The notes beneath the pieces are model-generated. The model was not told the DNA's origin. It did no database searches and saw only the letters and a list, made by a program, of their open reading frames with translations. A stretch of 64,000 bases of DNA from positions 1 through 64,000 of the forward strand of contig JAVQSZ010000003.1 in NCBI GenBank assembly GCA_033581555.1, read 5' to 3'. Every line of letters begins with the position of its first letter. The stretch's first letter is position 1. Shown here one piece after another: positions 4,894-33,550 of the stretch. The position numbers were made by a program, and so were the translations under genes. Source of the DNA: Nitrososphaerota archaeon (GTDB taxonomy: Archaea > Thermoproteota > Nitrososphaeria_A > Caldarchaeales > Calditenuaceae).

Positions 4894-4996
4894 GGCGTCC
4901 CTCGCAGGGTGCGAAGAGTTCAACGAACTCCTCTGAGGTCAGGTGTCATATGCGTGTGTATTAAACCTTATTACTGACATACATCGTTCTTAGACC

Positions 4997-7009
4997 GTGA
5001 GCTACGAGACTTTTCAGAGCGAGCCCCTGCCGTTCGATGAGAAGATTGTCGTGAAAGGGTGGGAGAACAGGACGGTAGACGTGGAGACTTACTGGAGGTT
5101 CCATCAACTGACGACGAAGGACTTCGAGAGGTTCTGGGAGAGCGTCGCGAGCGAGATCGAGTGGTTCAGGAAGTGGGACAGGATCGTAGAGCCGGGCGAG
5201 TACCCGAACGTCTACAGGTGGTTCCCGGGATCGCTACAGAACGTCTCGTACCTATGCCTGGACAGACACGTCAGGACCTGGCGCAAGAATAAGCTCGCGA
5301 TCCTATGGGAAGGCGAACCTGTCGACGAACGCGGCGAGCCGAAGGAGGTCAGGAAGCTCACCTACTACGACCTCTGGAGGCTCACCAACAGGATCGCGGA
5401 GGGGCTCAGGAGAATCGGGGTCAAGAGGGGGTCGAGGGTCGCGATCTACATGCCTATGATACCGGAGCTCCCGGCGGTGATGTACGCCTGCGCGAGGCTG
5501 GGAGCGACCTTCACGGTAGTCTTCAGCGGCTTTACCAGCGAGAACCTCGCGATGAGGATGAGGGACCTCGGGGCGAAGTTCCTGGTCACCGCAGACGGAT
5601 TCTACAGGAGGGGTAGGGTCGTGAGGCTGAAGGAGGTCGCGGACTCGGCGTGCCAGCTCTACGACGGGGTCGAGAAGGTGGTAGTGGTCAGGAGGCTGAG
5701 GGAGGATGTGCCGATGAAGGAGGGGAGGGACGTCTTCCTCGACGACCTCCTGGCGCAGGTCCCCGTCAACGCGTACGTCGAGCCCGAGAGGATGACTATA
5801 GATGAGCCCCTCTACGTCCTCTACACCTCCGGGACCACGGGCAAGCCGAAGGGGATCATCCACGACCACCACGGTTACTCGGTCATCCTCCACGCGACGA
5901 TGAAGTGGGTCTTCGACATCAGGGACGAGGACGTCTACTTCTGTACCGCCGACATAGGTTGGGTCACTGGCCACAGCTACGTCGCCTTCGGGCCGATCAT
6001 GGAGGGAGCAACGATCGTGATGTACGAGGGCGCGCCGGACTTCCCTGGTCCTGACAGGTGGTGGAGCATCGTCGAGAGGTACGGTGCCACCGTGCTCTAC
6101 ACGACACCCACCGCGGTCCGGATGCTGATGAAGTTCGGTGAGGAGCCGGTCAGAAGGCACGACCTCTCGACGCTAAGGCTGATCCACAGCGTAGGCGAGC
6201 CCATCAACCCCTCCGCGTGGAGGTGGCTCTTCGAGGTCGTCGGGGGCAAGAGGTGTCCCGTCGGGAGCACGTGGTGGCAGACCGAGACCGGCGGCATCCT
6301 GATCAGCCACCTCCCAGGCCTGATGCTCGTGCCCTTGAAGTCCGGGACCAACGGCCCGCCCTTACCAGGGATCGAGGTCGAGGTCGTCGACGAGCAGGGC
6401 AACCCGCTCCCACCGGGCGCGAAGGGCCTTCTCGTGGTCAAGAAGCCGTGGCCTGGGATGCTGGGACCTCCGACCGGGATGTGGGGCGACCCCGAGGGGT
6501 ACAACAGGGTTTACTGGAGCAGGTTCCCGGGCGTCTACTACACCGGCGACTACGCGATTAAGGACCAAGACGGGTACATCTGGGTCGCGGGTAGGGCCGA
6601 CGAGGTCCTCAAGGTCGCTGGTCACAGGATAGGGACCTTCGAGCTCGAGTCGGCGCTGGTCTCCAACCCTGCGGTCGCGGAGGCCGCTGTCGTGGGGATC
6701 CCGGATCCCGTGAAGGGCGAGGTCCCGCTGGCCTTCGTCACCCTGAAGGTCGGATACGTGCCCTCTGAGCAGGTCAAGAACGAGCTCCTCACCTGGATAA
6801 GGGAGAGGTACGGGCCCGTCGTCGTTCCTAAGGACGTCCTCTTCGTGAGGGGCCTGCCGAAGACTAGGAGCGGCAAGATCATGAGGAGGCTTCTGCGGGC
6901 GGTCGTGATGGGCGCCCCCCTGGGCGACGTGACGACGCTCGAGGACGAGGCGACCGTGGATGAGGTCAAGAAGGCCTACGAGGAGCTGAAGGAGTACCTG
7001 CAGCGCTGA
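4997..7009 (+). CDS. acs: AMP-forming acetyl-CoA synthetase
   Basis: LYTSGTTGKPKG, TADIGWVTGHSY, WWQTETG, LPKTRSGKIMRRLL. Confidence 0.96.
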   Translation: MSYETFQSEPLPFDEKIVVKGWENRTVDVETYWRFHQLTTKDFERFWESVASEIEWFRKWDRIVEPGEYPNVYRWFPGSLQNVSYLCLDRHVRTWRKNKLAILWEGEPVDERGEPKEVRKLTYYDLWRLTNRIAEGLRRIGVKRGSRVAIYMPMIPELPAVMYACARLGATFTVVFSGFTSENLAMRMRDLGAKFLVTADGFYRRGRVVRLKEVADSACQLYDGVEKVVVVRRLREDVPMKEGRDVFLDDLLAQVPVNAYVEPERMTIDEPLYVLYTSGTTGKPKGIIHDHHGYSVILHATMKWVFDIRDEDVYFCTADIGWVTGHSYVAFGPIMEGATIVMYEGAPDFPGPDRWWSIVERYGATVLYTTPTAVRMLMKFGEEPVRRHDLSTLRLIHSVGEPINPSAWRWLFEVVGGKRCPVGSTWWQTETGGILISHLPGLMLVPLKSGTNGPPLPGIEVEVVDEQGNPLPPGAKGLLVVKKPWPGMLGPPTGMWGDPEGYNRVYWSRFPGVYYTGDYAIKDQDGYIWVAGRADEVLKVAGHRIGTFELESALVSNPAVAEAAVVGIPDPVKGEVPLAFVTLKVGYVPSEQVKNELLTWIRERYGPVVVPKDVLFVRGLPKTRSGKIMRRLLRAVVMGAPLGDVTTLEDEATVDEVKKAYEELKEYLQR

Positions 7010-7013
7010 GCTC

Positions 7014-7041
7014 GTCGGCGACCGCCGACCCACGGTTTTTT
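7014..7041 (+). terminator. putative terminator (GC hairpin + T6) after acs
   Basis: GTCGGCG-AC-CGCCGAC inverted repeat at 7014-7029, then TTTTTT at 7036-7041. Confidence 0.5.
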
Positions 7042-7106
7042 CCCTCGCCCCTTTCTCCGGTCAGGAGGTCTTCCCGGAAAGACCTTAATTTGCCGGGGAG
7101 AGCTGT

Positions 7107-8327
7107 ATGACGAAGTTGGTCAGGCTCGGCCTGATCGGCAAGACCAACACCGGCAAGACGACGTTCTTCAACGCAGCGACGCTTCAGTCGGCCGAGGTCT
7201 CGACGTACCCGTTCACCACGAAGCAGCCCAATTACGGGATCGCCCACGCGGTCACACCATGCGTAGACAAGGAGTTCGGGGTCAAGTGCAACCCGAGGTC
7301 CGCGCCGTGCGTCGACAACTGGCGTTACCTGCCCCTCGAGTTGATCGACCTCCCGGGGTTGATAAAGGGCGCCTGGGCAGGGAAGGGGCTCGGTAATCAG
7401 TTCCTCGCGGTCGCGTCCCAGTCCGACGCGCTGCTTCACGTCGTGGACGCCTCGGGGAGCGTCGACGAAGAGGGGAAGCTCACCGAGCCGGGGACTGGCA
7501 ACCCGGTCGCGGACGTCTTCGACATAGAGGAGGAGCTCGATATATGGCTGATGAAGGTGATCGAGAGGAACGATGACAGGATCTCCAAGTCAATCAAGGG
7601 AGGGAAGCCCCTCGCTGAGGCGATCGCCGAGCCCCTCAACGGCATCAGGATATATGAAGAGCACGTGGAGAAGGCGCTGAAGCTCACGGGTCTTGTGAGC
7701 AAGGACTTCGAGAACTGGAACCTCAACGACGACAGGAGGTTCGCGAAGGCCCTCAGGGAGGTCTCGAAACCGACGATCATCGTGGCTAACAAGGTCGACA
7801 TCGAGACGGCCGACAGGTTCTACCAGGAGCTGGTGGAGAAGTTCCCAGACAAGATAGTGGTCCCTTGCAGCGCCGAGGCCGAGCTGATCCTGAGGAGGGC
7901 CGAGCAGAAGGGCCTGATCAAGTACAAGCCGGGGCAGGAGAAATTCGTCATCACGGGGGGAAGCTCGCTCACGGAGCGTCAGAGGTGGGCGCTGGACGTG
8001 ATCAACGAGAGGGTCATCGGGTTATACATGAGGACGGGCGTCCAGTTCGCGATCAACGTCGCGGTCTTCAAGCTCCTGGGGATGAACACGGTATACCCGG
8101 TCTACGACGTCCAGACCCTCACCGACAGGGCAGGGAACGTCCTACCCGACGCGTTCCTCGTCCCGCCGAACGCGACCGTGAGGGACTTAGCCGAGAGGGT
8201 CCACAAGGAGCTGGCGAAGGGGCTGCTCTACGCCATCGACGCCCGCACCGGCCTGAGGGTCCCCGCGGACCACAAGCTGAAGGACCGGGACGTGATCAAG
8301 ATCGTCTCGGCGACAGCGCACGGCTGA
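7107..8327 (+). CDS. OBG-family YchF/Ygr210-like NTPase with TGS domain
   Basis: GKTNTGKTTFF, YPFTT, DLPGLIKGA..GKGLGNQFL, NKVD, C-terminal TGS. Confidence 0.9.
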   Translation: MTKLVRLGLIGKTNTGKTTFFNAATLQSAEVSTYPFTTKQPNYGIAHAVTPCVDKEFGVKCNPRSAPCVDNWRYLPLELIDLPGLIKGAWAGKGLGNQFLAVASQSDALLHVVDASGSVDEEGKLTEPGTGNPVADVFDIEEELDIWLMKVIERNDDRISKSIKGGKPLAEAIAEPLNGIRIYEEHVEKALKLTGLVSKDFENWNLNDDRRFAKALREVSKPTIIVANKVDIETADRFYQELVEKFPDKIVVPCSAEAELILRRAEQKGLIKYKPGQEKFVITGGSSLTERQRWALDVINERVIGLYMRTGVQFAINVAVFKLLGMNTVYPVYDVQTLTDRAGNVLPDAFLVPPNATVRDLAERVHKELAKGLLYAIDARTGLRVPADHKLKDRDVIKIVSATAHG

Positions 8328-8385
8328 GGTTCCACGGGGCCGATCGTTGTAACCTTTTATGAGGCAGGGAGGCCCAGAGCGGGGA

Positions 8386-9186
8386 ATGTCCGTTCTGAGG
8401 AAGGAGGGCTTCCCGAGGGAGGGCGAGCTGGTGGTGGCCACGGTGAAGAGGGTCGAGAGGCACGGCGCGATCGTCGCGCTGGAGGAGTACGACGGCCTCG
8501 ATGCCTTCGTCCACGTCTCGGAGATCTCGCTGAAGTGGGTGAGGAACATCACGGACTACCTCAGGGTGGGGCAGAGGGCGGTCCTGAAGGTGATCAGGAG
8601 CAACCCGGAGACCCTTCAGGTCGACGTCAGCCTGCGCAGGGTCTCGAACAAGGAGAGGGAGGAGAAGATGATAGAGTGGAGCAGGAAGGTGAAGGCCGCC
8701 AGGTTGATAGAGGCTGTCGCGAAGGAGACGAACACGCCGATGCACGTCGTCGAGCAGGGACTGGTTCAGCCGTTGAGGGAAAGGGGGATCAACGTCTACT
8801 CCTTCCTCGAGGAGCTAGCGATGGGTGAGCCCCTTCCTGGCTGGATCAAGGTCCCGGAGGCTTTCGCGGCCAAGCTCGCCGAGAAGTGCGCGAGGGACCT
8901 CAAGAGGCCGGTCCACGTCGCGAAGGCCGTCGTCAAGCTCTCCTCGAGGAGAGGAGGGGTCGACGCGATCAGGAGGGCGGTGGAGGAGGCGATCTCCGTG
9001 GACCCGAGGTCGGTGAGGATCACGGTCATCGGCTCTCCGAGGTTCTTCGTGAGGGTCGAGGGCAGGAGCCCCGAGGAGGCCGAGTCGAGGCTCAGGGCCT
9101 GCGTCGAGAGGATGAGGGCCGTCCTCACGAACGAGGGCGACGTCGTCGAGGTCCTGCCCGCCGCGGAGGCGAAGGAGAAGAAGTGA
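8386..9186 (+). CDS. eif2a: translation initiation factor aIF2 alpha
   Basis: S1 domain FPREGELVVATV...HVSEIS..WVRNI, VDVSLRRV; ATG at 8386. Confidence 0.93.
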   Translation: MSVLRKEGFPREGELVVATVKRVERHGAIVALEEYDGLDAFVHVSEISLKWVRNITDYLRVGQRAVLKVIRSNPETLQVDVSLRRVSNKEREEKMIEWSRKVKAARLIEAVAKETNTPMHVVEQGLVQPLRERGINVYSFLEELAMGEPLPGWIKVPEAFAAKLAEKCARDLKRPVHVAKAVVKLSSRRGGVDAIRRAVEEAISVDPRSVRITVIGSPRFFVRVEGRSPEEAESRLRACVERMRAVLTNEGDVVEVLPAAEAKEKK

Positions 9187-9374
9187 GGATCAGGAGATGC
9201 GGGAGGTGCGGGAGGTACACGTTGAGGCCGGAGTGCCCGGCCTGCGGATACCCCACCTCTTCTCCACATCCGCCGCACTTCAAGGAGGGGAGCCCGGTGC
9301 TCGACGAGATGGCGAGGGCGGTTGTCGAGAGGTGGAGGGCCGAGGGCGCGAGGACTGGAGGGGACGGCGAGTGA
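9183..9374 (+). CDS. nop10: H/ACA RNP protein Nop10
   Basis: IRRCGRCGRYTL..CPACG.PT..PHPPHF; GTG overlaps the aIF2a stop, conserved gene order; lies inside track ORF 8886-9374. Confidence 0.9.
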   Translation: MRIRRCGRCGRYTLRPECPACGYPTSSPHPPHFKEGSPVLDEMARAVVERWRAEGARTGGDGE

Positions 9375-9928
9375 TGAGCAGCTGGATAGTCCGGCTCCAC
9401 GCCGCCGCGACCCGCCTCAAGTCGACCGAGAGGAAGGGCTGGAGGCTGAGGGGGGTCAGGGACCCGGAGAGCGTGGCCGACCACTCGCTGGCGCTCGCGG
9501 TCCTGAGCGTCGCGGTCGCCGCCTCGCGTGGCCTCGACCCGGGGAAGGCCGCGGTCATAGCGGTCCTCCACGACGTCGCCGAGTCCTACACCGGAGACCT
9601 CACGCCGGAGGAGAAGGACCATATGGGCGAGGAGAGGCTCTCGGAGCTAGAGGACAGCGCGCTCGAGCGGATACTGGAGGGCGCGCCGCCGGCGGTGAGG
9701 AAGCTCGTGAAGGAGGCCCTTGAGGAGTACAGGTCCGGGAGCTCCCCGGAGGCGAGGCTCGTTAGGGACCTCGACAAGCTCGAGATGGCCCTGACCGCCC
9801 TCGAGTACCGCGACCAGCTCGGCCCGGCGGGCGTGATGGAGTTCCTTGACTCAGCCGCGAGGTCCGTGAACGACAACGAGGTCTCGGAGCTGATAGGTGG
9901 GCTGGTCCGTGGCCTCAGCACTTCCTGA
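9374..9928 (+). CDS. HD-domain hydrolase (YfbR/HDDC2 5'-deoxynucleotidase-like)
   Basis: LK...RKGW, ESVADHS, HDVAESYTGD, DLDKLEM. Confidence 0.88.
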   Translation: MSSWIVRLHAAATRLKSTERKGWRLRGVRDPESVADHSLALAVLSVAVAASRGLDPGKAAVIAVLHDVAESYTGDLTPEEKDHMGEERLSELEDSALERILEGAPPAVRKLVKEALEEYRSGSSPEARLVRDLDKLEMALTALEYRDQLGPAGVMEFLDSAARSVNDNEVSELIGGLVRGLSTS

Positions 9929-27538: not shown

Positions 27539-27979
27539 ATGGCCGACGAGTGCGTCTTCTGCAGGATCGCCTCAGGCGAGGAGTGGGGCGCGATCGTCTG
27601 GGACGACGGCGAGTACGTCGCCTTCATGGACAAGTACCCGGTCTCGGTGGGCCACACGCTCGTGGCGCCGAAGTTCCACAGGTCCGACGTCCTCGAGATG
27701 TCCTTCGAAGAGGCCGGGAGACTCTTCTCGCTCGCGGCGAAGGTCGCGAGGGCGATCAAGGCCTCCCTGAACCCCGACGGCATCAACATCCTTCAGAACA
27801 ACGGCGCCGCCGCAGGGCAGGTGATCTTCCACGCCCACGTCCACGTCATCCCGAGGTACGCCGGACACCATGGGAACCCGTCCAGGCCACTGAAGGGGAT
27901 GAGGCTCAGCGTCACAGAGGAGGAGCTCCTGAGGGTCGCTGAGAGGATCGGTGAGGCCATGCGAAGGCTTCAGGGTTGA
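27539..27979 (+). CDS. HIT family hydrolase
   Basis: CVFCRI, GHTLV, AGQVIFHAHVHVIPR; ATG at 27539. Confidence 0.92.
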   Translation: MADECVFCRIASGEEWGAIVWDDGEYVAFMDKYPVSVGHTLVAPKFHRSDVLEMSFEEAGRLFSLAAKVARAIKASLNPDGINILQNNGAAAGQVIFHAHVHVIPRYAGHHGNPSRPLKGMRLSVTEEELLRVAERIGEAMRRLQG

Positions 27980-28329
27980 GCCCTGGGCCTGCTCTCCAGC
28001 CCGCTGTACCTCCTCACCGCGTCGACGAAGCTCTCCGGATCGGTCACCGATAGCACGAGCCTCCTCCAGAAGCCCGCATTCTTCCTCACCTCGACGCAGT
28101 TTCGCCTGCGAGCGACGACGTAGAGCGTCCTGCTGATCGGGTAGGGCTCAATCCCCCTTCCGACGTACCACGGGATCCTCTCGACGACGCCTACCCACTC
28201 CAGCTCCGGGTATGGAATCTCGATCGTGAAGAGGAGGGTCTTCACCTCCATCCGGTCCCAGCGAACGCGTGCCCATACCTTGAACGGGAAGAGGTCGATG
28301 TAGTCGGAGTGGAGGGCCTCCTCGGTCAC
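27970..28329 (-). CDS. hypothetical protein, bacterial PH-domain-like
   Basis: IEIPYPEL..V, LVLSVTDPESFVDAV pattern; translationally coupled to the upstream gene. Confidence 0.55.
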   Translation of the reverse strand: MTEEALHSDYIDLFPFKVWARVRWDRMEVKTLLFTIEIPYPELEWVGVVERIPWYVGRGIEPYPISRTLYVVARRRNCVEVRKNAGFWRRLVLSVTDPESFVDAVRRYSGLESRPRAQP

Positions 28330-28646
28330 CGGCGCCGCCTCAAGAGCGTGGCCGCGGCCCCGAGCGCCGCGACGAAGACCAGCGCGAGCCCCAGCACGAC
28401 TATTGGGTTGAGGAGGGTGGAGGCGGCGATCCCAAGTCCTGCAGCTAGGGCGACCCCTCCCCAGAGGAGGTAGTAGAGGGGGTCCCTGGACGCGGCCCCG
28501 TAGGCGACGGTGTAGACCCCGAAGACCGCCACGACGACCCCGACGGCGGTGAAGGGGTCGACCCTCAGCAGGCCCGCCCCCGATAGAACTAGCAAAGCCC
28601 CCGTCGATGCCACGATCGCTATCAGGGCTCCGGCGCCGTAACTCAT
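28326..28646 (-). CDS. small membrane protein (about 4 TM)
   Basis: Almost entirely hydrophobic, basic tail; ATGA overlap with the SPFH gene. Confidence 0.75.
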   Translation of the reverse strand: MSYGAGALIAIVASTGALLVLSGAGLLRVDPFTAVGVVVAVFGVYTVAYGAASRDPLYYLLWGGVALAAGLGIAASTLLNPIVVLGLALVFVAALGAAATLLRRRR

Positions 28647-29701
28647 GTCACCCTCGCACCGCACTCGGGGCAGAACTTGGACCCCGGCGCTACCCTGTGT
28701 CCGCTCGGACAGGTCAGGGCCATCGGAGCTCCGCACTCCGGACAGAACTTCGATCCAACCGGGACGCTGTGACCGTTGGGGCAGGTCGTCGTCTGAGGTT
28801 GCACCGGCGCCTGTTGCTGTGGAGGCGGCCCAAGGGGCTTGCCGCAGCTCCCGCAGAACCTCACGCCCTGAGGGTTCTGGAACCCGCAGTGCGGACAGAC
28901 CACCAGCACAGTTTGGGGCTGCTGGGCCGGATGCTGGAAGAGGGGCGGGATGATCGCGATGCCCGCGCCGACAGCTGCTCCCGGGCTCTGTCCGAGGGCC
29001 TCCGCGGTCTTCGTCACGGTCTGCATCCTGAGGACCTCAGCGGCCGAGACTCCCTGCCTGAGGAAGAAGATCCTGTCCCTCCACTCCGGCGTCGTGTCAA
29101 TCCCCTCGAACTTGACGTCGATCAGCTCGAGCCCTATCCTCCTGAAGGCCGCGCCCACGACGTTCTTAGCGAGGAAGCTGGTCTCGTCGAGCTTGCCGTA
29201 GACCTCGGTTATGCTGTGCTGGCTCAGCTCGTCGATTAGGGCCTCGTTGAAGTATCCCCTGAGGAAGTCCTGGAGCTGCTGGGTGCTGTAGGCTCCCTGC
29301 GACCCCACGACCTCCTGGACGAAGAGGTTCGGTTCCTCGACCCTGAACCAGAAGCCCCCGAAGAACTTCAGGGGTGCGAGCTCCTTCGTCTGGCCCTGCG
29401 CCCCGAACTTCCCCTGGAACTGCTTCAGCGAGACGAAGATCACGGTCGCCCTGAACGGGACCCTGTCGAAGCCCGCGACCCTCGAGAGGACCTTCGTCAG
29501 GAGCGGCAGGTTCGCGGTGGTGATCACGTGCCTCCCGGCCCTGAAGACGTCGTAGGCCTTCCCGTCCCTGAGGAAGACCGCGGCCTGCGCCTCCTCGACG
29601 ATAAGGTTGCTCCCCCACTCGATCTCGTCCACCGGGTACCTCCAGACGATGTCGCCCTCCCTCGCGCCGACCCACTGGATCACCTTAGGCAACCTTCCCA
29701 C
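28643..29701 (-). CDS. SPFH/Band-7 (YdjI-like) protein with C-terminal Zn ribbons
   Basis: GSNLIVEEAQAAVFLRDGKAYDVF..G.H...T.NLP.L; Gln/Pro linkers; CPHC..FCGSCG, CPNGH..FCPECG, CPSGH..FCPECG. Confidence 0.88.
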   Translation of the reverse strand: MGRLPKVIQWVGAREGDIVWRYPVDEIEWGSNLIVEEAQAAVFLRDGKAYDVFRAGRHVITTANLPLLTKVLSRVAGFDRVPFRATVIFVSLKQFQGKFGAQGQTKELAPLKFFGGFWFRVEEPNLFVQEVVGSQGAYSTQQLQDFLRGYFNEALIDELSQHSITEVYGKLDETSFLAKNVVGAAFRRIGLELIDVKFEGIDTTPEWRDRIFFLRQGVSAAEVLRMQTVTKTAEALGQSPGAAVGAGIAIIPPLFQHPAQQPQTVLVVCPHCGFQNPQGVRFCGSCGKPLGPPPQQQAPVQPQTTTCPNGHSVPVGSKFCPECGAPMALTCPSGHRVAPGSKFCPECGARVT

Positions 29702-30932
29702 CTCCCTTGCTCCTTCTGGGAATCCAGGGCCTCTGCCCAGCTATAACGTTGCCAGTCGAGCCCGAGACGACCACCATGAACTCCCTGCCCGACATCTCGT
29801 ACTTCACGAACCACCAGGGGTCGTAGACCAGCTCAGGCTCGCCTGCCTCGAAAGCGCTGACGTCGAACTTCCTCAGCGTCGTGTACCTGGACCTGATAGT
29901 CTCTAAGGCCGTGCCTTTGGCAAAATTGACGGCCTCGGCCTCGTCCATCTCCGCGTTCAGGACTTCGTCGCCGGTCCTCCTGAAGGGCAGCTTCCTCTCA
30001 AGGGGGACCCTGAAGGCCTCCGGGTCTGGCTGGTAGGCCGCAGACCTCCTCGCCACGACCGGGACTTGCATGAGCTCATCGACCGTCTCCTTCCTTTCCC
30101 TATCCGCGATCGTCCGCCCGGCCTTCCCGCCGAGTGCCGCTCCGAGCAGCTCGAGCCCGATCTCTTGGGCCACCTTAGCGACCTCGCTCTTCGTCTTGAC
30201 GAGGCCCCTTTCGCCGATCACCTCACCCCGAACCCTAACCGGGACCACCCATATCGGGACGTACGCAGACCAGATCTCTCCCCAGCTCGCCCTCTCGACC
30301 ATTCCCTTGGTGACAAGTATCCCCTTCGCGGCGAAGTCCTGCGCGATCCTCATCGCGGCGCTCCCGTCGACGGACATCGGGACCATCGACATCCTCGGAG
30401 GCTTCTCGCCGGTCGGGTTGTTCGCGTAACCGCAGTACCCGCATATGACGAGGACCTCCTCTGGGTCGTAGGTGAGTGGCGCTCCGCAGTGTAGGCACGC
30501 CTCTAGACGGGGGCGCTGTGTCGGTCGGGCTTGTCGAACCGGCAGTTGAGGCTGGGAGGACTGGGTCGGCACCGTCGTCTGAGGCGTTCCGAACAGCTTC
30601 CCCAGGGGGGTCGAGCTGAGCATCTCCAGCGCCTCTCGGGCCTCAAGCTGCCTCCAACCCACGATCGCCGACGGGTTAGCGCAAGACTCCATGAGCGCCT
30701 GGTCCACCAGGTCCTTCAGCTCTTCAGGCCCCTCGACATCCACCCTCAGCTCCTCCGGCGACCCGCCAGCCCTTATCGTCCCCTTCTTCATGAAGCCCCT
30801 GCTCACCTCGACGAGGAGGCTCCTCTGCCCCGGCAAGTGCTTGTTGACCTTCCATCCCGACCTCTGGAGGATCTCGATCAGATTTCGCTGAAAGGCGGTC
30901 ATGTCTACCCCGGCGTTCCTGTACGTCGGCAT
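29685..30932 (-). CDS. Zn-ribbon protein (YdjG-like), soluble paralogue with extra N-terminal domain
   Basis: CLHCGAPL...CGYCG, YVPIWV, YDPWW...Y...G....VVSGSTG.V; no C-terminal TM. Confidence 0.7.
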   Translation of the reverse strand: MPTYRNAGVDMTAFQRNLIEILQRSGWKVNKHLPGQRSLLVEVSRGFMKKGTIRAGGSPEELRVDVEGPEELKDLVDQALMESCANPSAIVGWRQLEAREALEMLSSTPLGKLFGTPQTTVPTQSSQPQLPVRQARPTQRPRLEACLHCGAPLTYDPEEVLVICGYCGYANNPTGEKPPRMSMVPMSVDGSAAMRIAQDFAAKGILVTKGMVERASWGEIWSAYVPIWVVPVRVRGEVIGERGLVKTKSEVAKVAQEIGLELLGAALGGKAGRTIADRERKETVDELMQVPVVARRSAAYQPDPEAFRVPLERKLPFRRTGDEVLNAEMDEAEAVNFAKGTALETIRSRYTTLRKFDVSAFEAGEPELVYDPWWFVKYEMSGREFMVVVSGSTGNVIAGQRPWIPRRSKGGGKVA

Positions 30933-30935
30933 CAG

Positions 30936-31469
30936 CTAACCCACCTCCGCCAGGCCCTTCAGGATCTTCGTCCTCTCGTCGATCAGCTTGTCGAACTCGG
31001 AGACCGCCGCCCTCACCTCTGAGAGCTTGGCCTTCCACTCGTCCGTCCCGGGTTCCCTGCCCATCAGCTCGGCGACCGAGGACCTGATCGACTCAGCCCT
31101 CTCGATCAGCGAGAGGTCGTGCCTGATCACCGCGTCCAGCTTGTCCTCCTTCACCTTCACCGCGTCGAAGAGGCCCGCGTAGCCTGCGACCGCTTTGTCG
31201 ATCCTCTGCGTCACCCTGTCCAGCTCGGCCCTGAGGTTCTCGAAGAGGAACTTGGAGTCCTGGTCGTACGCGAGCTTCCTGGCTGCAGAGGGCGAGAGCG
31301 GGGAGCTGAGGGACGCCCTGGCCTCCGAGAGCAGCGAGCTGACCTTCCTCCTCACCAGGACGTCGGTCTCCCTCCTGACCTCCTTCTCCTTGTACCCCCT
31401 GTAACCGGGGACGTAGGAGATGATCCTCTCGAGGAGGCCCATCTCCCTCCTGACGCGCTCGACGTCCAT
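30936..31469 (-). CDS. alpha-helical/coiled-coil hypothetical protein
   Basis: LLERIISYVPGYRGYKEKE.RRETD..VR, GYAGLFDAVKV.E..LD....D; heptad-like charge pattern. Confidence 0.75.
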   Translation of the reverse strand: MDVERVRREMGLLERIISYVPGYRGYKEKEVRRETDVLVRRKVSSLLSEARASLSSPLSPSAARKLAYDQDSKFLFENLRAELDRVTQRIDKAVAGYAGLFDAVKVKEDKLDAVIRHDLSLIERAESIRSSVAELMGREPGTDEWKAKLSEVRAAVSEFDKLIDERTKILKGLAEVG

Positions 31470-31493
31470 TCGAGCCCTGTCATCAACCTACCG

Positions 31494-31499
31494 ATATAA
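31494..31499 (-). promoter_or_regulatory. TATA box for the 31469-27970 transcription unit
   Basis: TTATAT on the minus strand about 25 nt before ATG 31469 (leaderless spacing). Confidence 0.6.
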
Positions 31500-31541
31500 G
31501 GCCTACACCGACGAGCAGGCCGAACCTCTAAAAGGACCGAG

Positions 31542-32552
31542 TCACGTCATATCCCTCCTGTAGATCCTCTCGATCAAGCCCGGTTTCCTCCGCCCCTCCG
31601 TGACCGGCTCGTGGGCCTTCGCTGGTGCTAGGGCGGCCCTGGCGTAGTAGGCGGAGGCCGTCGCCATACCGGCAAGCGCGGTGACGGCCGTCAACCAGCT
31701 CGAACCCCAGATGACCGCAGCGAGCGTTATCCCCGCGACCAAGTGCAGCGCGGATATGCCGAGGTAAGCTGCCCTCTCGGCGACCTCGGAGGGATACGTC
31801 GCGAGGATCACCCTCGACGACGATGCATCGATCATGGCCCTGTACTTCTTGCCCCGGAACTCATAGGTGACGTCCCAGACGGGGACGTAAACCAGCGAGA
31901 GCTCCCCGACCGAGATCTCGTCGGACCTGGACCTAACCTCGACGACCTCCCTCGAGATGAGCCTCGTCAGCTCCGCGGCGGCCGCCCTCTCTGCGGCCCT
32001 CCTCGCCTCTTCCCTGCTCACTGTGGCGCCGTGAAGGACGCCTCCGTGCCTCCTGACGTACTCGTGGCTGAAGTAGAGCCTCGCCCTCGAGACCGCGACC
32101 ATCTCCCCCTCCACTGGAACCTCTCCGCTCGCGGGGACCGCGAACTCGATCAGCCTCTCGAAGCTCCCGGACTCCTCCCTCCGGATCAACTTGACGGTCC
32201 TGAAGCCCTTGCCGTCCGGATTCGAGTACTCCGCGTCCTCCCCGAGCCCGGTGAAGGCAGTCGAGGCACGGACGGTCGCGACCCAGAACGGATAGAAGTG
32301 GAGGCTCACTTCCCTGAGGACCATCTCCCTCGGGAGCGACTCGTCGTAGAGGTGCTGCTTCTCGGCCCAAAGCAGGAAGTTCTCTAAGGCCTTGCTGCTG
32401 TCGTAATGGACAGGTAGGACGTACCTCTTCTCCTCCTCGAAGGTCCTGAAGGTCACGCCGCAGTAGCCGCACCTGATCGCGACGTCTCCCTCCCTCACCT
32501 CGTGGGACGCGCCGCAGTTCGGGCACCGGTAAGTCCCAGCGACGCCGCTCAT
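31542..32552 (-). CDS. Zn-ribbon protein (YdjG-like) with two C-terminal TM helices
   Basis: CPNCGA...CGYCG, FYPFWV, YVPVW...Y...GKKY...IDA; ATG 32552 overlaps the upstream stop. Confidence 0.75.
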   Translation of the reverse strand: MSGVAGTYRCPNCGASHEVREGDVAIRCGYCGVTFRTFEEEKRYVLPVHYDSSKALENFLLWAEKQHLYDESLPREMVLREVSLHFYPFWVATVRASTAFTGLGEDAEYSNPDGKGFRTVKLIRREESGSFERLIEFAVPASGEVPVEGEMVAVSRARLYFSHEYVRRHGGVLHGATVSREEARRAAERAAAAELTRLISREVVEVRSRSDEISVGELSLVYVPVWDVTYEFRGKKYRAMIDASSSRVILATYPSEVAERAAYLGISALHLVAGITLAAVIWGSSWLTAVTALAGMATASAYYARAALAPAKAHEPVTEGRRKPGLIERIYRRDMT

Positions 32553-33550
32553 CCCTCGAGCACCCTCACGTCCTCCTCCTTCGAGAGCCTCTTCAACCTC
32601 TGGATTGCGGTCGCGGACCTCGCGGAGAGGTAACCCCAGAGCGCCGCTAGACCGGGCGGTAGGGCTAGGAGGATCAGCTTGGCTTCTAGGCTGACGTCCT
32701 CGTAGAGGAGGGGCTCGATGACTGGTCCCAGCGCAGCGGTGGCGAGCACCGCACCTGCTCCTACGAGCATCCACTTCGCCCTCCTCAGCAGGCTTACCGG
32801 AGCCTCCGCCTTCAGCACCTTCACCCCACCCTCCGCGCCGTCGACGCAGAGCCTGTAGGACTTCCCTCGGGACTCGTACCGGGCCTCGACCACTGGGTAG
32901 AGGACGAGCCTGATCGAGGAGCGGTCCGTCTCGGTGTAGCAGTCGAAGACCTTCGTCGCCATCGACTCAACCCTCGACCTGTGCGCGTCGGCGGCCCCTA
33001 CCTCGGCGGATTTCCAGGCCTCCTCTTCGGTGAGCTCGGATCCCAAGACCTCCCAGCCCCTCAGCGCTCCTGGGTCGAGCCCTCCAGCGGCTTCGTAGCG
33101 CGTCAGCGCGCTCCACTTCACCGCCCCGAGCCCGAATATCGACTCGAACTTCCTCCCGTAAACCGCGACCGCGAGCCTCTCGTCGAGCGTGCCCGTCACG
33201 GGATAGTAGACCTTATAGACCGTCGTTCTGCGTCCAGTGGATCTGGTCTTGTGCTCGACCTTGTACCCGTTGTAACGGGTTCTCGCCCTCAGCTCCGCCA
33301 CCCAGACCGGGACTGCGACGAACCTGACGTCCCGTATCGAGGCCCCCTTTCCTCCCTCCTTACGGACCGCGCGCTCCACGAAGTCCCTCAGCTCCTGAGC
33401 GCGGGCCGGACGGACCATAAGGGGGCTGGCCCCCAAGGGGAAGGAGGACTCGACGTGGCCGCAGTAAGAGCAGACGGAGACGACCGTGTCGGGAGAGAGC
33501 TCGATGGGGGCCCCGCAGTTCTGGCACCTGTGAGCGGCCTCCGTCAGCAT
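32549..33550 (-). CDS. Zn-ribbon protein (YdjG-like) with two C-terminal TM helices
   Basis: CQNCGAP...CSYCG, AVPVWV, LYPV....Y...GKSY...VDG. Confidence 0.75.
   Translation of the reverse strand: MLTEAAHRCQNCGAPIELSPDTVVSVCSYCGHVESSFPLGASPLMVRPARAQELRDFVERAVRKEGGKGASIRDVRFVAVPVWVAELRARTRYNGYKVEHKTRSTGRRTTVYKVYYPVTGTLDERLAVAVYGRKFESIFGLGAVKWSALTRYEAAGGLDPGALRGWEVLGSELTEEEAWKSAEVGAADAHRSRVESMATKVFDCYTETDRSSIRLVLYPVVEARYESRGKSYRLCVDGAEGGVKVLKAEAPVSLLRRAKWMLVGAGAVLATAALGPVIEPLLYEDVSLEAKLILLALPPGLAALWGYLSARSATAIQRLKRLSKEEDVRVLEG

Follow-up and report, generated by a model that had tools for sequence, protein, structure and literature searches.

An archaeal gene cluster joining a YdjI/SamI-type SPFH protein and YdjG-type Zn-ribbon proteins to two partners of no known family

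The stretch of DNA analysed here, called the window below, comprises 64,000 nucleotides (nt) of contig JAVQSZ010000003.1 (assembly GCA_033581555.1, positions 1-64,000) and contains a compact cluster of seven open reading frames (ORFs), g1 to g7. All seven are located on the minus strand, are read in the same direction and together span positions 33550-27970. The cluster encodes a soluble protein of the SPFH type, three zinc (Zn) ribbon paralogues, a helical protein, a small polytopic membrane protein and a further small soluble protein, arranged as listed here, with minus-strand coordinates given from 5′ to 3′ in descending order and lengths in amino acids (aa):

g1, 33550-32549, minus strand: 333 aa; N-terminal C4 Zn ribbon, alpha/beta domain and C-terminal hydrophobic helix pair
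g2, 32552-31542, minus strand: 336 aa; second membrane-anchored Zn-ribbon paralogue
g2-g3 gap, 31541-31470, minus strand: 72 nt; A/T-rich hexamer TTATAT at 31499-31494
g3, 31469-30936, minus strand: 177 aa; soluble, predicted helical-bundle protein of an uncharacterised conserved family
g4, 30932-29685, minus strand: 415 aa; soluble Zn-ribbon paralogue with about 140 extra N-terminal residues
g5, 29692-28643, minus strand: 349 aa; SPFH protein of Band_7_1 type, soluble, with three Zn ribbons at the C-terminus behind a low-complexity linker
g6, 28646-28326, minus strand: 106 aa; four hydrophobic helices, without a soluble domain
g7, 28329-27970, minus strand: 119 aa; soluble, perhaps with a PH domain of bacterial type; its membership of the system is doubtful

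Neighbouring reading frames overlap at four of the six junctions, by 4 nt each at g1/g2, g5/g6 and g6/g7, and at g4/g5 by 8 nt if g5 starts at TTG 29692 or by 17 nt if it starts at GTG 29701, the latter giving a protein of 352 aa. The TTG start is probably the correct one, since nearly all relatives of g5 begin with MPKVI. In the case of g2, the longest ORF begins at GTG 32774, and ATG 32552 is preferred because the relatives are mostly 313-353 aa long. The spacing between g3 and g4 is 3 nt, so that the 72 nt between g2 and g3 form the only sizeable gap, in which the hexamer TTATAT sits about 27 nt before the g3 ATG; this gap may possibly hold an internal archaeal promoter. A scan for promoters and terminators of bacterial type, which does not cover archaeal promoters, returned nothing in the gap; it gave one promoter-like and one terminator-like site, both intragenic and not above shuffled sequences. 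Since each of g1 to g6 has homologues in many of the 80 related loci described below, we regard these six as genuine genes. Hydrophobic segments, counted as 19-residue windows above a Kyte-Doolittle (KD) threshold of 1.6, number two in g1, one in g2 and four in g6, and none was found in g3, g4, g5 and g7. The original prediction for this DNA, made from the sequence alone, had described seven co-oriented genes with mostly overlapping stop and start codons, encoding two membrane-anchored and one soluble Zn-ribbon paralogue, a helical protein of 177 aa, an SPFH protein carrying three Zn ribbons and a protein with about four transmembrane (TM) segments; the ORFs and their junctions confirm this arrangement, and the hydrophobic windows, the profile matches and the structural model of g3 agree with the descriptions of the proteins.

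For the SPFH protein g5 the Pfam family Band_7_1 (PF13421), the cut-off of which is 24, gives 99.8 bits, and residues 19-206 align with positions 1-198 of the 211 in the profile; the protein scores 63.8 bits on Band_7, and Zn_Ribbon_1 is matched in three stretches. After about residue 235 follows a linker rich in G, A, P and Q, and then the three Zn ribbons. There is no intrinsic membrane anchor, the most hydrophobic window reaching a KD value of 1.15, and identity to 28 relatives amounts to 66-84 %. A protein without an anchor, with a region of low complexity and a C-terminal zinc finger has been described in Bacillus as SamI, also called YdjI (PMC13713150). Judged by its sequence features, g5 is thus a soluble Band_7_1 SPFH protein of YdjI/SamI build, and the parallel with YdjI drawn in the original prediction fits its anchorless SPFH region, linker and Zn-ribbon tail.

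Unlike g5, the helical protein g3 has no assignable Pfam family, whether g3 itself or 37 members of its family are used as queries. It belongs to a large and strongly conserved group: 1207 of 1840 scored candidates are related to it at E<=1e-3, relatives labelled Bathyarchaeia, Thermoprotei and Thorarchaeota being 52-58 % identical among the matches listed, and 32 columns are invariant in an alignment of 37 sequences. The best relatives of g3, as well as those of g2, are labelled Aigarchaeota, Candidatus Caldarchaeum or Calditenuaceae, which places the window in an archaeon of Aigarchaeota/Caldarchaeales type. An AlphaFold2 (AF2) model of g3 is all-helical (pLDDT 85.1, pTM 0.83), with helices at residues 33-54, 60-96, 108-136 and 143-174 and two short N-terminal helices, which suggests a compact bundle; the model places the conserved motifs PGYRGYKEKE...RRE.D and AVAGYAG.FD..K..E..L between helices. 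Residues 3-20 are among the most amphipathic stretches of the protein (hydrophobic moment, muH, 0.58). The only named relative is the uncharacterised NCBIfam family NF047596 (LIMLP_15305 family, Leptospira), matched by 37 of 37 members of the g3 alignment at E<=1e-3 (best E 1.9e-15); residues 3-169 of g3 align with positions 8-172 of the 175 in this profile. Since g3 scores 43.9 bits against a curated cut-off of 210, it is a distant relative of NF047596 rather than a member. The tag LIMLP_15305 was traced to a single paper, the available text of which lists it beside a small RNA (PMC7567364). ESM Atlas leads point to clusters in Methanobacteriota and Chloroflexota that look like g3.

A relation of g3 to PspA or to ESCRT-III was considered in several ways and rejected. 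The Pfam families PspA_IM30 and Snf7 matched neither g3 at E<=1 nor the 37 family members at E<=0.01. When PDB sequences were searched with the g3 profile, PspA, Vipp1 and ESCRT-III were all missing from the 13 rows obtained at E<=10, and Foldseek comparison of the g3 model with the PDB gave no match at E<=0.001 (best E 0.12), with no ESCRT-III-type chain among about 40 rows listed from ranks 1-50. The hhalign probability against Escherichia coli PspA was 0.35 %, and the model is devoid of the long alpha1-alpha2 hairpin. Against viral models, Foldseek likewise returned no match for g3 at E<=0.001.

Regarding the two smallest proteins, Pfam gave no consistent family for g6, in which the four hydrophobic windows are packed into 106 residues and the family alignment shows Y3, G43, Y45, W62, G63 and G86 to be invariant. 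For g7 there was no match in Pfam (E<=1), NCBIfam or PADLOC; its nearest ESM Atlas clusters score 0.94 and carry bPH_5 (PF10882) on 18-19 % of their members, which makes the PH-like character named in the original prediction no more than a lead.

The co-occurrence of these genes was surveyed with g3 as anchor. Two conserved peptides matched 266 stretches in a collection of one genome per species (185,579 species), 187 of the 266 encode a g3 relative, and the best 80 of the 187 loci were fetched, contigs of metagenome-assembled genomes (MAGs) being fragmentary. The counts from this survey concern g3-bearing loci and are hence silent on how frequently g5-type genes occur without g3. By title, 15 of the 80 loci are Caldarchaeales-type, 55 Bathyarchaeia or Bathyarchaeota and two Nezhaarchaeota, and eight are labelled otherwise (Thermoproteales, Nitrososphaeria, Thaumarchaeota, Thermoproteota, Terraquivivens, uncultured archaeon). 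The seven window proteins were compared by phmmer with the 4163 ORFs of these loci, and the 51 loci with at least 2.5 kb upstream and at least 3 kb downstream of g3 were taken as well flanked.

In all 51 well-flanked loci g5 is present (in 49 as an ORF, in two by tblastn across masked N runs), and in all 51 it follows g3 or, where g4 exists, g4. An apparent lack of g5 in two loci, L034 and L036, was dismissed as an artefact, as masked N (651 and 99 bases, respectively) breaks the ORF directly after g3; these interruptions, within 5741-7368 of L034 and 8519-9314 of L036, make ORF-based counts score g5 as absent. The g6 gene is present in 50 of the 51, the exception being a Nezhaarchaeota locus (L056, JASFYF010000001.1), where, within positions 6701-9590, g6 is missing and an ORF of 372 aa, hydrophobic at its N-terminus, stands upstream of g3 instead. 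Some Zn-ribbon paralogue is found in 33 of the 51 and the g4 type in 12, and a profile of the Zn-ribbon family has no member in 30 of all 80 loci, some of these short-flanked. The g7 gene occurs in one of the 51, being confined to the window and its closest relative (L005), and is therefore probably not part of the system.

Gene order in Bathyarchaeia is [short Zn ribbon]-g6-g3-[g4]-g5, as compared to g1-g2-g3-[g4]-g5-g6 in Caldarchaeales, square brackets marking genes that are not always there. In 60 of the 62 loci where g6 precedes g3 the g6 stop overlaps the g3 start, in 51 cases by 4 nt; g3 and g5 overlap or lie at most 30 nt apart in 39 of 55 loci, and g3 overlaps g4 in 16 of 19. Mean pairwise distances over 66 loci are 0.23 for g5, 0.38 for g3 and 0.57 for g6, making g5 the most conserved of the three. 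A search of the 80 loci for an additional recurrent component found none beyond g3, g5, g6 and the Zn-ribbon family: other neighbour families recur in at most 27 loci and, judged by sequence with no family scan, look like housekeeping genes from a single subgroup of Bathyarchaeia. Since flanks and neighbour families differ among loci, the cluster stays together while its surroundings change.

The conserved unit is thus the triad g6-g3-g5 and not the set of seven genes, and this triad is near-invariant and translationally coupled across Caldarchaeales, Bathyarchaeia and their relatives. Of the co-occurrence foreseen in the original prediction, the recurrence of a core in other genomes stands, and the seven-gene unit does not, given the distribution of the Zn-ribbon genes and of g7. 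The prediction had also treated the gene for the 177-aa helical protein as a side part; being coupled to both g6 and g5 and belonging to no known family, g3 turns out to be the most telling part of the cluster.

The three Zn-ribbon proteins g1, g2 and g4 are 27-29 % identical in pairs, share 35 invariant columns and recognise one another in phmmer at E values from 1e-5 to 1e-15, which bears out their earlier description as paralogues. In an alignment of 30 sequences no variation is seen at C10, C13, C28, Y30, C31, P88, P224 and P254, and next to none at W90, Y230 and G234, matching the shared motifs CxxCGA..CxYCG, P.W and P...Y...G that the prediction had named; each protein has one Zn ribbon, the four cysteines of which are invariant in all 30. 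The members differ at the C-terminus, where g1 has two hydrophobic windows, g2 one window (two helices in its model) and g4 none. Five of the 30 archaeal members touch PF08271 below its cut-off, and one matches PepSY (E 4.3e-4). The AF2 model of g2 (pLDDT 83.0) comprises the Zn ribbon at residues 6-45, a helix and a long beta-hairpin at 78-140, a helix at 180-202 with four strands, and helices at 257-281 and 286-308. Foldseek gave nothing significant for the whole model: its top rows were beta-pore-forming toxins and secretins with a probability of at most 0.16 and a TM-score of about 0.1, on account of which this pore-former signal was not accepted.

The paralogues are unevenly distributed. 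Orthologues of g1 occur in Caldarchaeales-type loci (L001-L014, the copy in L003 being cut by the contig end), and the g1 and g2 types together are confined to such loci plus L017 and L070; among 7998 scored candidates, 23 are related to g2 at E<=1e-3, and only a single one of these comes from a source that is not Aigarchaeota-like. In contrast, g4 has orthologues in Bathyarchaeia loci at E 1e-122 to 1e-137. Its residues 1-140, which match nothing in Pfam or NCBIfam, are conserved between the Caldarchaeales and Bathyarchaeia orthologues. Outside Caldarchaeales, neither the short type (27 of 27) nor the g4 type (17 of 17) has a hydrophobic window, so that g6 is the sole membrane protein of the cluster there. 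A maximum-likelihood tree of the Zn-ribbon family (87 rows, eight of them bacterial) resolves four well-supported archaeal clades on long stems, namely the g4 type (20 rows, support 100/99), the g1 type (14 rows, 100/100), the g2 type (15 rows, 100/99) and a short type of 250 aa (26 rows, 100/100), which indicates that the paralogues are old; the placement of the bacterial rows on their long branches is unreliable. We also would like to mention an ORF family found in nine Bathyarchaeia loci, the N-terminus of which resembles that of the long Zn-ribbon members.

When a profile of 30 archaeal Zn-ribbon members was searched against 1.84 billion proteins, the matches at E<=1e-3 comprised 8141 cluster representatives, of which 3788 remained at E<=1e-10; proteins that combine a pair of Zn ribbons with a single TM segment were reached at about E 1e-36. 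Among the readable matches listed, 17 of 149 carry the shared domain together with two Zn ribbons and, at the C-terminus, a single hydrophobic segment. Four matches (P0202, P0209, P0277 and P0281) are family members of 490-505 aa with different N- or C-terminal regions fused. The two-ribbon build of the 17 matches agrees with that published for YdjG, which has two Zn ribbons, a central domain described as YpeB-related and NTF2-like, and a TM segment (Ravi et al., PMC11237479). Close relatives of one two-ribbon match, P0272, are labelled Lachnospira, Eubacteriales and Diplocloster, and most carry PF08271, the Pfam domain that was named for YdjG (Popp et al., PMC9239133). With P0272 as query, tblastn retrieved 12 plasmid or chromid records, and in 11 of them the Zn-ribbon gene has an SPFH gene no more than about 2 kb away, the Tsukamurella record being outside this count.

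In one of these records, from Enterococcus gallinarum (NZ_CP116511.1), the Zn-ribbon gene stands between SPFH and TPM genes, forming a trio like ydjI, ydjG and ydjH without pspA. The archaeal Zn-ribbon profile aligns with this Enterococcus Zn-ribbon protein (4992-6113 of locus L081) by hhalign with a probability of 98.7 % (E 2.5e-16, 250 columns), starting at the second Zn ribbon and reaching as far as the globular domain does. The neighbouring SPFH protein is matched by g5 in BLASTP (E 9e-10); this alignment starts at residue 81, inside the SPFH region, crosses the linker and extends into the Zn-ribbon tail. In 10 further records, too, the g5 query matches the SPFH gene within about 2 kb of the Zn-ribbon match. 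By these alignments g1, g2 and g4 are homologous to Zn-ribbon proteins of bacteria whose genes neighbour SPFH genes, and the relation to YdjG that had been proposed for them is upheld by way of the Enterococcus protein and not of Bacillus subtilis YdjG itself.

Operons of SPFH and Zn-ribbon genes that have no pspA, with or without a TPM gene, pair an SPFH gene with a YdjG-type gene in Enterococcus, Vibrio, Paracoccus, Comamonas and Pseudorhodobacter as well, the homology to the archaeal pair being shown directly only for the Enterococcus pair. Differently from the archaeal cluster, they are without g3 and g6; tblastn with g3 against 72,556 plasmid records gave no match at E<=0.01. Other partners accompany the bacterial dyad: TPM in Enterococcus, TelA and DUF2927 in Paracoccus, and a helix-turn-helix domain fused to the SPFH protein in Comamonas. 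In Paracoccus ferrooxidans pFER4 (CP038202.1, 542-5260), genes for a TelA-like "toxic anion resistance protein" and for a DUF2927 protein precede the dyad. The slot beside the dyad seems to vary by lineage, with PspA in Bacillus, TelA in Paracoccus and g3 in archaea. The Paracoccus locus also suggested TelA as an identity for g3, which was rejected at hhalign probabilities of 0.9 % (one TelA) and 2.3 % (profile of seven TelA sequences). On a Vibrio coralliilyticus plasmid (NZ_CP048695.1, 1-6059) the dyad has two hypothetical genes as neighbours, together with a TIR-domain gene on the other strand, a setting that may represent a defence island and that is unlike the archaeal loci.

The best described system for comparison is the pspA-ydjGHI (pspA-samGHI) operon of B. 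subtilis, the features of which are taken here from published descriptions. YdjI is soluble and needs the membrane proteins YdjG and YdjH for recruitment to the membrane (PMC8581546, PMC13713150), and it is required for the formation of PspA foci (PMC8581546). The archaeal cluster shares with this operon a soluble SPFH protein of Band_7_1 type that bears a low-complexity linker and, at its C-terminus, a zinc finger, a Zn-ribbon family with a membrane segment and a gene for a helical protein, and the soluble parts are all predicted to be cytoplasmic in both. The cluster differs from the operon in having no PspA, g3 being unrelated to it by every test; a 4-TM mini-protein instead of the TPM-domain protein YdjH; one Zn ribbon per adaptor instead of two, together with three Zn ribbons on the SPFH protein; and three adaptor paralogues, one of which is soluble and has an extra N-terminal region. 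Neither PspA nor TPM families were found in the seven genes at E<=1, and at E<=1e-5 none of PspA, Snf7, TPM, NfeD, integrase and transposase families was found in the 61 other ORFs of the window, in keeping with the statement of the prediction that TPM and PspA genes are missing. Archaeal loci that join SPFH and Zn-ribbon domains in a conserved, membrane-related neighbourhood have been described before, namely the 'Meth_adaptin' ESCRT loci of methanogens, and the same authors remark on a YdjI-PspA parallel for an SPFH/coiled-coil/Zn-ribbon protein (Makarova et al., 2024 preprint, PMC11188069). In the literature covered this is the closest published statement. Compared by description, the methanogen loci differ in containing genes for Vps4, ESCRT-III and adaptin-like proteins, of which the seven genes, the other ORFs of the window and the recurrent neighbours showed none.

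Taking these data together, we consider it probable that the cluster encodes a membrane-associated scaffold of YdjI/SamI type on the cytoplasmic face, held there by g6 and the Zn-ribbon adaptors and recruiting or controlling g3. According to this model, g5 would oligomerise in the way of SPFH proteins, which form ring-like megacomplexes on membranes (PMC13713150, PMC11188069), and would assemble on the cytoplasmic face of the membrane, where the 4-TM protein g6 would act as its constant membrane receptor. In Caldarchaeales, g1 and g2, as Zn-ribbon tethers anchored by a hairpin, would strengthen the hold on g5, with soluble g4 as a further adaptor. The assembly would then recruit or regulate g3, a predicted four-helix bundle with an amphipathic N-terminus occupying the operon slot that PspA has in Bacillus. 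The likely role would be to maintain or organise the membrane, either as housekeeping or in response to stress. The expanded counterpart of a Psp-type system put forward in the original prediction is retained as far as the SPFH and YdjG-type homology goes; a PspA relation of g3, a seven-gene unit and a role in defence are not retained.

Several observations weigh against this scaffold model. When the g5 profile was searched against PDB sequences, no solved SPFH structure was matched at E<=0.01, only the Zn-ribbon tail finding matches, and the oligomer geometry of g5 is accordingly extrapolated from distant relatives. By Pfam, g6 shows no likeness to TPM/YdjH or to NfeD. No Zn-ribbon paralogue is nearby in 18 of the 51 well-flanked loci, so that the tethers, unless encoded elsewhere, must be non-essential, and the archaeal paralogues have one Zn ribbon, with a two-helix anchor in g1 and g2, as against two ribbons and one helix. 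Moreover, the link to YdjG passes through bacterial proteins of the described architecture and operon context; the sole direct pointer is the ydjG forward primer printed in PMC8581546, which encodes an N-terminus much like that of P0272. The notion of a "PspA slot" for g3 is an analogy of gene position only. Finally, g3, g5 and g6 show correlated pairwise distances (rho 0.86-0.90, 66 loci), a result that fits joint inheritance and is equally explained by shared descent. Prediction of a complex between residues 1-262 of g5 and g3 scored 0.47, 0.46 and 0.00 in three runs, compared with 0.60 for a control in which an unrelated protein took the place of chain 1, and thus speaks neither for nor against binding.

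The alternative that survives best, itself unlikely, is an SPFH cage by which a client, be it a membrane protease, a channel or something else, is regulated in the manner of HflK/C-FtsH or stomatin-NfeD, with g3 and g6 as clients or regulators instead of repair effectors. The ring-like SPFH megacomplexes mentioned above would suit it, as would g6, a small polytopic protein always encoded with g5, and in Bacillus the loss of SamI acts via unbalanced SamH activity and not via PspA (PMC13713150). The cluster does share an SPFH scaffold, a small membrane partner and an expected oligomer with the stomatin/NfeD and HflK/C-FtsH systems, from which it departs by the missing anchor of g5 and the lack of an NfeD or protease partner: no protease, NfeD or channel family was found in the seven genes or in the recurrent neighbours, g6 is without a soluble domain, and g3 shows no catalytic signature.

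Less probable than the cage is a true Psp system in which g3 is a cryptic, strongly diverged protein of PspA/ESCRT-III type and g5 recruits a membrane-remodelling polymer. The gene does adjoin YdjI-type SPFH and YdjG-type genes, and its product is helical, of about 20 kDa, with an amphipathic N-terminal stretch; links between PspA and SPFH proteins have been described as ancient (PMC11188069). These points are countered by the profile, structure and hhalign comparisons detailed above for g3 and by its model, which is a compact bundle and not a long hairpin.

We give slightly less credence still to the idea that there is no single seven-gene system and that g1-g2, g3-g6 and g7 are separate units adjoining one another in this lineage. 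It would be consistent with the 72-nt gap and its TATA-like hexamer before g3, with the narrow distribution of the g1 and g2 types and of g7, and with the position of g6 before g3 in Bathyarchaeia and after g5 in Caldarchaeales. On the other hand, the 33 of 51 archaeal loci in which a Zn-ribbon paralogue adjoins the triad belong to different lineages, and the bacterial homologues lie beside SPFH genes in 11 of 12 records; a functional tie between the Zn-ribbon and SPFH proteins is therefore likely even if transcription is split. As regards g7, this explanation is largely absorbed into the preferred one, namely the membrane-associated SPFH scaffold.

An anti-viral or abortive-infection system with membrane proteins as effectors, as the original prediction had suggested, is very improbable: the Vibrio dyad near a TIR-domain gene on the other strand and the long beta-hairpin of g2, with pore formers at the top of its Foldseek rows, could hint at it, but that signal was too poor to accept, the best match in PADLOC-DB 2.0.0 to any of the seven proteins has E 0.0093 and falls on a Zn-ribbon stretch (with no row for g1, g3, g4, g5 and g7), g3 resembles no viral model at the threshold given above, housekeeping genes account for the 61 other ORFs of the window, among which neither integrase nor transposase families were found, the recurrent neighbours look like housekeeping genes too, and g5 is very conserved. 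Conservation of this degree is not typical of fast-evolving defence genes.

A bolder extension of the scaffold model, which we put forward tentatively and regard as doubtful, is that the g3 family constitutes a new class of SPFH-recruited, membrane-active effector, unrelated to ESCRT-III and PspA and doing the job of PspA in Caldarchaeales, Bathyarchaeia, Nezhaarchaeota and others. The triad would then be an ancient, self-contained machine for membrane maintenance, and the Zn-ribbon proteins exchangeable adaptors shared with bacteria. Possible further lineages of this effector class are Leptospira, through NF047596, and the Chloroflexota and Methanobacteriota of the Atlas clusters.

SPFH proteins are found in every domain of life, and their molecular role is poorly understood. 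To our knowledge, SamGHI/PspA of Bacillus is the only studied case of the soluble, Zn-finger-bearing SPFH subtype. What is new here is a module of SPFH and YdjG-type proteins with two partners of no known family replacing PspA and TPM: the SPFH/YdjG-type pairing extends into archaea, where it is joined to two family-less partners conserved as tightly as the SPFH neighbourhood itself. More than half of 915 archaeal genomes surveyed are without any Psp domain (PMC9239133), which makes a non-PspA partner of a YdjI-type scaffold a concrete candidate for membrane upkeep in such archaea. The cluster also provides a first context for the NF047596 family of Leptospira and offers four small, soluble or easily expressed proteins for study. 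No description of the archaeal cluster or of the g3 family was found in the literature covered, which did not extend to most subscription journals or to the supplements of PMC11237479, PMC9239133 and PMC11188069, where such loci may be listed.

Regarding the surroundings in the window, the genes of the ribosomal proteins S17-L14-L24-S4e-L5 (33551-36055, minus strand) run in the same direction as the cluster, which begins 46 nt downstream of them. Genes for S14, S8 and L6 usually follow L5 in archaea, and they are absent after L5 at this junction. The ribosomal-protein flank is common to only three of the 80 loci (L001, L002 and L005), which are those closest to the window.

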